From a virus (lineage: Duplodnaviria; Heunggongvirae; Uroviricota; Caudoviricetes): a stretch of DNA of 27,080 bases. The translations under genes were made by a program, and so were the position numbers. Below the pieces are notes generated by a model, which was not told the origin of the DNA, searched no databases, and worked only from the letters and a program-made list of their open reading frames with translations. Position 1 is the first letter of the stretch. The number at the start of each line of letters is the position of its first letter. The stretch is taken from IMG/VR virus record IMGVR_UViG_2645728048_000018, one strand, 5' to 3'. Shown here one piece after another: positions 26,066 to 27,080 of this stretch.

Positions 26066-26533
26066 TTAGTTCAGGCACTGAGTGCGGATATAGTCCTGTG
26101 CCCCTTCCAGCTGCTTCTGCATTGTCATCAACCGTTCTCTGAGGATGAAATAATCCCGTTCAGCGGTGTCTGCCAGTCGGGGGCCGGTTGCATTATCCAC
26201 GCCGGAGGTGCCGGTGGCTTCACGCACGGTACCGGAGCAGGTGGCGTTGATCCGCAGGCGCTTACGACCAGCGGCAACATCAGCACGCAGAGTTTCATTT
26301 TCAGCTCTCGCATCGGCTAATTCCCTCGAGTATCTGGCATCAAGTTCAGCGACATCACGCTGGCGTATCTGCATATCAGTAATTGTCGCGTTCGCCAGTT
26401 TCAGCTCACTGACTTTTTTATCGCGCTGCGCTTTGTAGGTGATGGCGTTATCGCGGTAATGATTCAGCCCCAGACTAAGCACACCACAGGCTACCAGCAG
26501 GACAATAATCACCACACACAGAACACGGTTCAT
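26066..26533 (-). CDS. Rz: Rz i-spanin
   Basis: From the ATG at 26533: [39 protein letters not shown]...[47 protein letters not shown], collinear with lambda Rz. Confidence 0.85.
26128..26298 (-). CDS. Rz1: Rz1 o-spanin lipoprotein, embedded in Rz in the +1 frame
   Basis: [56 protein letters not shown]: lipobox followed by a proline-rich region, matching lambda Rz1 ([27 protein letters not shown]). Confidence 0.8.
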
Positions 26534-26534
26534 A

Positions 26535-26621
26535 TCACCACCAACGGATTGCCCAGACCAGAACAGCAATGGCCACAATACGAATGGCAAATGCCATTGC
26601 CCGAATAAGTTCAGCACTCAT
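26535..26621 (-). CDS. Tiny hydrophobic ORF 3 (28 aa) immediately upstream of Rz
   Basis: [28 protein letters not shown]. The stop TGA is 1 nt before the Rz ATG. It is paralogous to the C-terminal part of ORF 2. Confidence 0.3.
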
Positions 26622-26632
26622 CTTTTTAAAGT

Positions 26633-26755
26633 TCACGATTTCAGCGCAATGACCAGTTTTGCCAGCCCATACAGCATCGGAGACACAGCAATACCAACAG
26701 CCACCCACTTAATAGCAAAAGCCAGCGCTCTGCTGATGTCATCAGTCACTGTCAC
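26633..26755 (-). CDS. Tiny hydrophobic ORF 2 (40 aa, GTG start)
   Basis: (V)TVTDDISRALAFAIKWVAVGIAVSPMLYGLAKLVIALKS. The GTG start overlaps the TGA stop of ORF 1 (GTGA coupling). It is the distal part of ORF-track entry 26633..26905. Confidence 0.3.
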   Translation of the reverse strand: MTVTDDISRALAFAIKWVAVGIAVSPMLYGLAKLVIALKS

Positions 26756-26883
26756 CCCAGCAGCCCCGACGAAGACAACATCACCCAGGCGAGGGACAGA
26801 AAAAGAGCAACCAGCATTAGTGAAAATGAAATACCGACAATCACACACAGGACCTTTGCCGGCGTTATGAGTTTGTCTGACAT
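26752..26883 (-). CDS. Tiny hydrophobic ORF 1 (43 aa), holin-like single transmembrane peptide
   Basis: ATG at 26883 preceded by an AAGGGG RBS: MSDKLITPAKVLCVIVGISFSLMLVALFLSLAWVMLSSSGLLG. It is the first ORF downstream of the tR'-like terminator, where a holin gene is expected. Confidence 0.35.
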   Translation of the reverse strand: MSDKLITPAKVLCVIVGISFSLMLVALFLSLAWVMLSSSGLLG

Positions 26884-27044
26884 AGCTACCCCTTAATTGC
26901 CACAATTAACTGGGATACTACCCATAAAAAAGGGATGCTCCAGACCAGCAAAAATTTCCAGTTTGGTAATTGACTAATCATGAGTCGCAACTCCCTAATC
27001 AGTTTGCTAAAATCAATCAAGGCAGCCTCCCATAGCTTACTGCC

Positions 27045-27079
27045 ATAAAAACAAAACCCCGCTTGCTGCCAACAAACGG
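27045..27079 (-). terminator. tR'-like intrinsic terminator at the start of the late operon
   Basis: Minus strand CCCGUUUG-UUGGCAG-CAAGCGGG (one G.U pair) followed by UUUUGUUUUUAU, about 160 nt upstream of the first late ORF. The window edge truncates the context. Confidence 0.4.
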
Positions 27080-27080
27080 G

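Follow-up and report, generated by a model that had tools for sequence, protein, structure and literature searches.

In phage lambda the lysis genes R and Rz abut. The lysis cassettes of Shiga toxin-converting (Stx) phages are built in ~99% of cases as a pinholin, a signal-arrest-release (SAR) endolysin and Rz/Rz1 (PMC8136144). The present analysis concerns the lysis region at the right end of a 27,080-nucleotide stretch of DNA from a virus of the Caudoviricetes (IMG/VR record IMGVR_UViG_2645728048_000018), which is called the window below. The lysis operon occupies the minus strand and is read from the right end of the window to the left. The end of the window falls within the lysis cassette of a late operon. 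The cassette is intact and belongs to a lambdoid Escherichia coli prophage that resembles Stx phages; in it, four very short open reading frames (ORF0 to ORF3) precede Rz. As a whole, the locus is interpreted here with moderate confidence as an intact cassette joined by small genes for single-pass inner-membrane peptides, which come from three families of enterobacterial phages and are probably late modulators. The features of the region are as follows (lengths in amino acids, aa; best family matches with their E-values in brackets).

27043..27080, minus strand: 3' part of the intrinsic-terminator hairpin with its T-tract, found by folding; the first 5 nt lie beyond the window end
26886..27020, minus strand: ORF0, 44 aa, TTG start (phrog_6632, 1.4e-13)
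26752..26883, minus strand: ORF1, 43 aa, ATG start, Shine-Dalgarno sequence AAGGGG (phrog_4906, 4.5e-21)
26633..26755, minus strand: ORF2, 40 aa, GTG start (phrog_1115, 6.4e-25; phrog_4493, 5e-17; phrog_3246, 2.4e-20)
26535..26621, minus strand: ORF3, 28 aa, ATG start (phrog_4493, 3.8e-6)
26066..26533, minus strand: Rz, the inner-membrane spanin (i-spanin), 155 aa (PF03245, 7.5e-50; phrog_13, 7.4e-76)
26128..26313, minus strand: Rz1, the outer-membrane spanin (o-spanin) lipoprotein, embedded in the +1 frame of Rz (PF06085, 1.7e-21; phrog_3198, 1.7e-31)

The Rz/Rz1 pair had already been recognized by the first-pass annotation, which was made from the letters of the window alone and reported that the region lacks an endolysin. 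This absence is an artefact of the window edge. The genome of E. coli NCCP15648 matches the region with 100% identity, and its operon runs on upstream of position 27080 with a class II holin, a YdfR-family gene and a lysozyme. Coordinates outside the window are given below for the locus L001 of a 100%-identical genome, which runs past the window end (window position 27080 corresponds to L001 7001). The holin is of the P21 type ("P21 holin S", 71 aa, L001 5464-5679, PF04971, 9e-33). The lysozyme (177 aa, PF00959, 1.3e-23) ends at L001 6905, and its stop codon is thus only 96 bp past position 27080. It matches the structures 3HDE and 3HDF of the phage 21 lysozyme (8e-16 for 3HDE; about 1e-15) as well as RrrD, and its N-terminus MNAKIRYGLSAAVLALIAAGAPAP is SAR-like. 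Judged by the S21-family holin and the SAR-like N-terminus of an R21 homologue, the pair represents a putative pinholin/SAR-endolysin system of the phage 21 type. All components of a complete lambdoid lysis cassette are present, namely the holin, the endolysin and an i-spanin with an embedded o-spanin. An endolysin immediately upstream of 27080 in the same operon is also one half of what the first-pass annotation had named as speaking against a decayed cassette; its other half was a match of the small ORFs to a known multi-gene holin.

The locus shares with the phage 21/Stx-phage cassette the PF04971 holin, the R21-type lysozyme with its SAR-like N-terminus, Rz with embedded Rz1, and the order S, R, Rz/Rz1. 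It differs in that R and Rz are separated here by a gap of 642 nt with a terminator and four micro-ORFs, and in that a YdfR-family gene stands between S and R. From right to left the cassette reads P21-type pinholin S, YdfR-family gene, R21-type SAR endolysin R, hairpin, the four micro-ORFs and Rz/Rz1. The string ORF0-ORF1-ORF2-ORF3-Rz also follows S and R in PhiR5_1, an isolated, plaque-forming phage (host E. coli C) with the gene order of the window plus a Rha-like gene after R. At least 80% of the 1181-bp region is present in 570 of the 5426 complete E. coli genomes, and the exact arrangement of the window is carried by about 10% of such genomes. Sequencing indels that split a single holin ORF into three frames can be excluded, as many independent complete genomes of E. 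coli share the 1181-bp region with 100% identity. Reading past the window edge thus removes the claim of spanins without an endolysin and cautions against over-reading truncated windows.

The interval between R and Rz begins with a hairpin located directly after R (L001 6996-7028). It has a 15-bp stem with an A-tract before and a T-tract after it, and folds with -24.2 kcal/mol (z = -4.95; none of 200 shuffled sequences folds as well). The hairpin is a strong terminator following R and not the "tR'-like" terminator that had been assumed. The distance from the hairpin end to the Rz ATG is ~515 bp, so that the earlier figure of ~370 bp was too small. The spacing between the R stop and the Rz start varies from 492 to 1413 nt among the relatives examined. 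The hairpin is present in relatives lacking ant/Rha genes (L001, L165, L006) and absent from those having them; the hairpin and the ant/Rha genes are therefore alternative occupants of the space after R.

The three micro-ORFs of 43, 40 and 28 aa described in the first-pass annotation were all confirmed on the minus strand. They lie in three different frames (start coordinates modulo 3 equal 0, 1 and 2 for ORF1, ORF2 and ORF3), and each contains a single 19-residue hydrophobic stretch with a Kyte-Doolittle value of 1.9 to 2.9. The GTGA overlap between the ORF1 stop and the ORF2 start and the TGA-T-ATG junction between ORF3 and Rz are both found in the sequence. A fourth frame, ORF0, was absent from that list as well as from the annotation of the identical genome by the NCBI Prokaryotic Genome Annotation Pipeline (PGAP). 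Together with Rz, the four frames form a chain of five cistrons with gaps of at most 11 nt: the TAG of ORF0 is 2 nt from the ATG of ORF1, and the TGA of ORF3 is 1 nt before the ATG of Rz.

ORF1 is a single-transmembrane (TM) peptide which matches phrog_4906 over its full length (residues 1-43). A tblastn search revealed full-length 43-aa homologues, 63-100% identical and free of stop codons, in 276 phage records; most Stx1- and Stx2-converting phages are among these, and the homologues are usually left without annotation. At every locus examined ORF1 is situated within the lysis cassette and adjoins either Rz or an o-spanin-like lipoprotein. An indexed protein search returned 103 clusters, all of them from E. 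coli and nearly all of 43-44 aa. One ORF1 homologue (MMGWLMISDKLITLVKSLCVLVGISFLVMLVAIFFSTAWRVLTLSGLVG, ~65% identical) is XECs191 of E. coli O157:H7 Sakai, reported as a novel small gene with a ribosome profiling (RIBOseq) signal (Hucker et al. 2017, PMC5597208). In lysogeny broth (LB), XECs191 showed a translatome value of 12.6 reads per kilobase per million (RPKM), a ribosome coverage value (RCV) of 0.43 and a coverage of 0.55; the prediction was an inner-membrane location with a single TM helix, the authors' classifier called it "real", and it was given no function (PMC5597208). XECs191 resembles ORF1 in sequence and predicted topology and brings a translation signal of its own. It differs in being called with a longer N-terminus (49 aa), and the Stx-phage homologue follows a truncated ant gene and not ORF0.

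The similarity of the ORF1 helix start to the N-terminus of Rz, to which the first-pass annotation drew attention, turned out to be weak, since 158 of 5000 shuffles reached its score. A profile search of 1.84 billion representative proteins gave 28 short relatives of ORF1, with no spanin and no holin or holin-length protein among them. A derivation of ORF1 from the N-terminus of an i-spanin was consequently rejected; only ~10 residues follow its TM helix.

ORF0 starts with TTG 5 nt behind the Shine-Dalgarno sequence GGGAGG; its product is charged at the N-terminus (IDFSKLIRELR) and has a single TM helix in the C-terminal part. Its match to phrog_6632 covers residues 1-43. Homologues of 44-45 aa occur in Salmonella, Citrobacter, Enterobacter, Klebsiella and Providencia with a nearly invariant IDFSKLIRELR segment, and in the four loci examined outside E. 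coli they have GTG starts behind good Shine-Dalgarno sequences. A distant paralogy of ORF0 and ORF2 was considered and not accepted, because their C-terminal similarity was reached by 29 of 5000 shuffles and is suggestive only. Both ORF0 and ORF1 look like intact genes.

The ORF2 family usually has a 48-aa form with a single TM helix: MKNGLELKAPVTDDISRAVAFAIKWVAVGIAVSPMLYGLAKLIIALKS. Alignment of the family demonstrates that the N-terminus MKNGLELKAP is replaced in the copy of the window. The first ~10 codons together with the ribosome-binding site have given way to the 3' end of ORF1, and ORF2 has lost its native start, probably by recombination exactly at the ORF1 stop. The starts that remain are the GTG in the GTGA overlap, from which other pipelines call an ORF2 of 40 aa, and an upstream start used by PGAP for a model of 51 aa from 26788 (RefSeq WP_042004856, L001 7293-7448), the first codon of which reads CTG. 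In agreement with this truncation, the match to phrog_1115 covers only the C-terminal 38 of 67 profile positions, and the N-terminal third of the family is missing. With its 90 aa, the matching phrog_3246 is probably a product of ORFs that were called too long and run into ORF1. When the species-representative genomes of GTDB were scanned for the ORF2 family, no match was confirmed; the family is therefore regarded as strain-variable prophage cargo.

The paralogy of ORF2 and ORF3, proposed in the first-pass annotation, holds: the two peptides align locally with a score of 47, which none of 5000 shuffles reached (mean 23.2 ± 4.5), and both match phrog_4493 and phrog_3246. The similarity is limited to about the first 14-20 residues, and that of the DNA is short. 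The two are linked by P0048, a 38-aa family member (MNAELLRAAAFAIKW...ALKS), and the DNA homology of ORF3 to a P0048-type gene extends over the first ~14 codons only. The C-terminus of ORF3 is unrelated to ORF2 and ends with AIRWW (26535..26550). An ending of AIRWW or VRWW is also seen in ORF0-family proteins of Citrobacter, Enterobacter and Klebsiella. ORF3 may have arisen as a chimera in which the 5' end of an ORF2-type gene was joined to the 3' end of an ORF0-type gene, although the five shared residues are too few for a test of this origin.

The phage phiSTEC1589 (L165, phiSTEC1589-Stx1c, ~2130-2320) carries damaged versions of both genes. Its ORF2 copy is frameshifted by a 1-nt deletion, and its ORF3 is shortened in frame to 15 aa by the loss of 13 codons with the start and the Rz-adjacent stop kept. 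ORF1 of this phage stops with TAA and not with TGA, so that the GTGA overlap is lost. The truncated ORF2 copy is dispensable in the arrangement of the window. ORF3 and the 5'-truncated ORF2 copy look like remnants of recombination, and ORF3 is probably a decaying remnant that survives as a leader ORF for Rz.

Selection was analyzed on divergent alleles fetched singly, since the 160 IMG/VR loci are 94-100% identical to the window and uninformative. The ratio of nonsynonymous to synonymous substitution rates (dN/dS) is 0.14 for the ORF2 family (E. coli versus Salmonella), 0.27 for ORF0 (0.49-2.2 in the other five frames) and 0.38 for ORF1 (0.62-1.33 in the other five frames, six alleles). The variable sites of the ORF2 family are distributed as 10/3/24 over the three codon positions. 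Its AFAIKWVAVG-AVSPMLYGLAKL core is identical in the E. coli and Salmonella copies at a proportion of synonymous differences (pS) of 0.65-0.69, which is near saturation. One antisense frame of ORF2 also has a low dN/dS (0.25), as is to be expected where wobble positions are shared with the sense frame; the sense frame is favoured by start codons, Shine-Dalgarno sequences and the orientation of the operon. The three peptide families are conserved and under purifying selection, with a strong constraint on the ORF2 family, and a homologue of ORF1 is translated.

A 73-aa ORF runs antisense to ORF1 and ORF2 (26649..26870, plus strand) and is open in all relatives, reaching 128-198 aa in L006 and L173. 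Most likely it is not a gene and is a side effect of shared wobble positions and of the codon usage of the sense genes.

All four peptides match PHROG families labelled "unknown function", ORF1 and ORF0 over the full length, ORF2 without the N-terminal third and ORF3 in part. No Pfam, NCBIfam or PADLOC assignment was obtained for ORF0-ORF3 (PADLOC at E <= 1), and with PHROG matches to "unknown function" families alone none of the four falls into a holin family. The public names of the peptides are "hypothetical"; most of them occur on ~1000 contigs or more, and the exact ORF0 sequences on far fewer. A literature search by accession numbers and PHROG identifiers found no papers. Catalogue entries for the peptides already exist: RefSeq lists them as hypothetical proteins, PHROGs contain them as families, and the ORF1 homologue has been named XECs191. 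The idea of an "unrecognised membrane-peptide module" therefore stands only in part: conserved small membrane-peptide genes under purifying selection are indeed present (ORF0, ORF1 and the ORF2 family), while they are already catalogued and do not form one module, and ORF3 and the truncated ORF2 are remnants.

The families occur in changing combinations in other phages. In phi24B and Min27 the order is R, truncated ant, ORF1, Rz, and in P8983 ORF1 likewise lies between a truncated ant gene and Rz; in these three Stx phages the start of ORF1 and the ant stop share the sequence TGATG, and 8-11 nt separate the end of ORF1 from the start of Rz. PhiR12_3 has the order R, ORF2, ORF1, Rz, and the window R, ORF0, ORF1, truncated ORF2, ORF3, Rz. 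The boundaries of megablast matches coincide with ORF starts. In Enterobacter, ORF0 homologues are located between the endolysin and a spanin pair; in Citrobacter they precede gpJ, and in Klebsiella they lie within a baseplate module. In Salmonella enterica (L173 2305..2668; L172), tandem ORF2-family paralogues of 64 and 55 aa are found in a non-lysis context, flanked by a tail-fibre-like gene with a SASA esterase domain and a DUF1353 "tail assembly chaperone" beside host genes at the prophage edge. In every case examined the small gene is co-oriented with the late genes. Each family is found alone in other contexts, and the string in the window is therefore a mosaic of mobile micro-genes and not one module. 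Judged by these comparisons of loci, the peptide families shuffle independently among the late-gene junctions of different phages.

A special arrangement is found in the E. coli prophages L168-L171 (~2300-2960). Here a different lysis cassette, made up of two holins and a GH108 endolysin, precedes a TM ORF of 65 aa, an ORF2-family gene of 38 aa, an ORF1-family gene of 44 aa and a lipoprotein of 60 aa (phrog_7528). The start of the lipoprotein gene lies within the end of the ORF1-like gene, and an Rz-like i-spanin was not called in these prophages. A spanin census (PMC6139136) lists the lipoprotein as an o-spanin of phiP27. Such a set could be spanin-deficient or disrupt the outer membrane in an unconventional way. 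The proposal that phiP27 itself has an Rz-less cassette using the peptides was rejected: phiP27 proper is devoid of them, and only the L168-type relatives combine ORF1- and ORF2-family genes with an L32-type lipoprotein. The 64-aa "i-spanin" of PhiP27 in the census supplement (L175 3170..3364, PMC6139136) has a TTG start and no predicted coiled coil and is antisense to a 90-aa ORF; its assignment looks doubtful.

A scan with a crude consensus detected no sense promoter between the terminator after R and ORF0. One weak antisense promoter-like site was found, which is within chance (3 sites found versus 3.4 expected). As no sense promoter was detected and the gaps between the cistrons are at most 11 nt, the peptides are probably produced only from the Q-antiterminated late transcript, with their translation probably chained into Rz.

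Which function would fit these properties? According to the reading favoured here, the peptides would be made from the Q-antiterminated late transcript in a translational chain ending with Rz, and would act in the inner membrane by helix-helix packing against a specific partner. The packing is suggested by the nearly invariant TM cores and by the small-xxx-small motifs (GISFS in ORF1 and GIAVS in ORF2). There they would modulate, dispensably, a late membrane event, i.e. the timing of lysis or the behaviour of the spanin, the holin or the SAR endolysin; ORF3 and perhaps the truncated ORF2 would mainly be translated leaders bringing ribosomes to Rz. This assignment to a dispensable effect on lysis timing or on spanin, holin or SAR-endolysin behaviour is by analogy and tentative. 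Mu gp25 ("releasin"), the T4 RI antiholin and the dual-start antiholins are small TM proteins encoded in or near the lysis cassettes of SAR-endolysin phages which modulate lysis and do not execute it. These accessory regulators are the favoured functional analogy for the peptides, which differ from them in having no sequence similarity to them, in being much shorter and lacking a soluble domain, and in that two of the three families are not confined to lysis cassettes.

Several points weigh against the favoured reading. Phages lambda, 21 and P22 lyse without such genes, and any role in lysis is therefore accessory. A lysis-specific role is further weakened by the position of the ORF2 family beside Salmonella tail-fibre genes and of the ORF0 family in tail or baseplate modules of Citrobacter and Klebsiella. 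No homology of the peptides to any characterized protein was found in Pfam, PHROG, NCBIfam, PADLOC or the protein profile searches. The dN/dS of ORF1 is only moderate, and the selection tests comprise five or six sequence variants per family. The crude consensus used for the promoter scan leaves expression in the lysogen possible. Finally, the XECs191 signal exceeded the thresholds in only one of three conditions, in uninduced cultures (PMC5597208).

It is possible that the genes are moron-like cargo independent of lysis. Their products would then be small membrane proteins shielding an infected or lysogenic cell, for example through superinfection exclusion or the inhibition of a membrane-bound host defence effector, and the genes would sit in the R-Rz gap only because it tolerates insertions. 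Such a protective or cargo role is nearly as likely as the modulation of lysis because two of the three families have non-lysis contexts, namely the ORF2 family between the SASA-domain gene and the tail assembly chaperone at Salmonella prophage ends, and the ORF0 family before gpJ in Citrobacter and in the Klebsiella baseplate module. The R-Rz gap of relatives also houses ant/Rha morons, and the near-invariant TM cores suggest a specific membrane partner. The lambdoid morons, i.e. ant/Rha between R and Rz in Stx phages and bor after Rz in lambda, indeed use the same insertion-tolerant slot; classical ones have their own promoter and terminator, whereas at this locus no promoter was found, the terminator lies upstream and not downstream, and the ORFs run into Rz. 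The peptide genes are, moreover, always co-oriented and tightly packed with late genes, they have no PADLOC matches, and ORF1 resides in a lysis cassette at every locus examined, beside Rz or the o-spanin-like lipoprotein.

The possibility that the ORFs have no peptide function appears unlikely. They would then be hydrophobic-looking by-products of illegitimate recombination at the R-Rz joint, kept open for the hand-over of ribosomes to Rz or by chance. The losses in phiSTEC1589 conform to this, as ORF3 there tolerates the removal of 13 codons in frame with its start and its stop 1 nt from Rz retained, and ORF2 is frameshifted. The last ORF always ends at most 11 nt before Rz, and long antisense ORFs are open too, which makes a lack of stop codons weak evidence in this region. 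Accidental frames would, however, not be expected to conserve amino acids at high synonymous divergence with dN/dS values that are, for ORF2, ORF0 and ORF1 alike, the lowest of the six frames. Their length is constant over dozens of ORF1 clusters, and the same peptides are found in contexts without Rz downstream.

It is rather improbable that the peptides damage the membrane themselves as extra holin- or pinholin-like parts, as type I toxin-like peptides or as a disruptin-like substitute for or helper of the spanins. They are small, hydrophobic and encoded in a lysis cassette, and in the L168-type prophages an ORF1-like gene overlaps the start of the census-listed o-spanin lipoprotein where no Rz-like i-spanin is present. 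However, they match no holin family and lack a charged C-terminal tail of the holin type: all four end 0-11 residues after the TM helix, with uncharged or single-lysine ends (...SSSGLLG, ...ALKS, ...AIRWW and ...AIKG). With periplasmic tails of no more than about 12 aa, they are too short to serve as i-spanins, which need a mostly coiled-coil periplasmic domain that reaches the o-spanin. With a net charge of +1 to +3 and a grand average of hydropathy (GRAVY) of 1.0-1.6 the peptides are unlike the cationic amphipathic disruptin of phiKT, and the canonical S, R and Rz/Rz1 set is already there. The toxins Hok, Ldr and TisB and the small E. coli proteins AcrZ and MgtS share with them a size of 28-48 aa, a single TM helix and the inner-membrane location; no sequence or Rfam match connects them, no antisense RNA or own promoter was detected, and the genes described here belong to a phage late operon. 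A search for a type I toxin or an antisense RNA gave no Rfam match at E <= 1. A named counterpart in the Qin prophage of E. coli K-12 was sought and rejected: rrrQ and rzpQ abut there, and no ynf small gene corresponds.

The decayed cassette of a lysis-defective prophage suggested by the first-pass annotation, in which the holin and endolysin were lost, the spanins kept and the micro-ORFs are debris of S and R, is refuted. Although no endolysin is visible inside the window, and although ORF3 and the truncated ORF2 look like remnants (of peptide genes, not of S or R), identical genomes carry both a holin and a lysozyme directly upstream, the peptides match no holin or lysozyme family in Pfam, PHROGs or NCBIfam, and isolated phages have the same ORF string.

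The surroundings of the cassette contain further genes. Outside the window, a hypothetical gene of 90 aa lies on the opposite strand between the YdfR-family gene and the lysozyme (L001 5994-6266, minus strand); its counterpart in PhiR5_1 is annotated as DUF1823. Just downstream of Rz, at the place of bor in lambda, a 113-aa ORF (25401..25742, minus strand) has a lipoprotein-like signal LVMGC and a moron-like look. Its RefSeq name is "TonB family protein", and its PADLOC match (E = 0.044) is meaningless. An HNH endonuclease gene at 24662..25027 (minus strand) is followed leftwards by the genes for the small and large terminase, the capsid and the portal. The order of this packaging module is as in phage phiP27 and the lysis module is Stx-phage-like, and the prophage is therefore a mosaic of both.

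The locus shows that lambdoid and Stx-phage lysis cassettes very often hold conserved membrane-peptide micro-genes, which are left unannotated in most phage records. The release of toxin by Stx phages depends on the lysis cassette, and a peptide that tunes lysis would, if real, be medically relevant. It may be speculated that phrog_6632, phrog_4906 and phrog_1115 represent an unrecognized class of mobile, late-expressed single-pass micro-membrane proteins of temperate enterobacterial phages, which would bind specific partners (the pinholin, the SAR endolysin, the spanin machinery or a host membrane protein) and thereby set the timing of lysis or protect the infected cell. If this were true, the timing and amount of Shiga toxin release would be influenced in Stx phages, and the first candidate for a new accessory factor of lysis would be ORF1, which immediately precedes Rz in the genomes of most Stx phages and is not annotated there, with a role that is easy to test in the well-developed lysis systems of lambda and phage 21.

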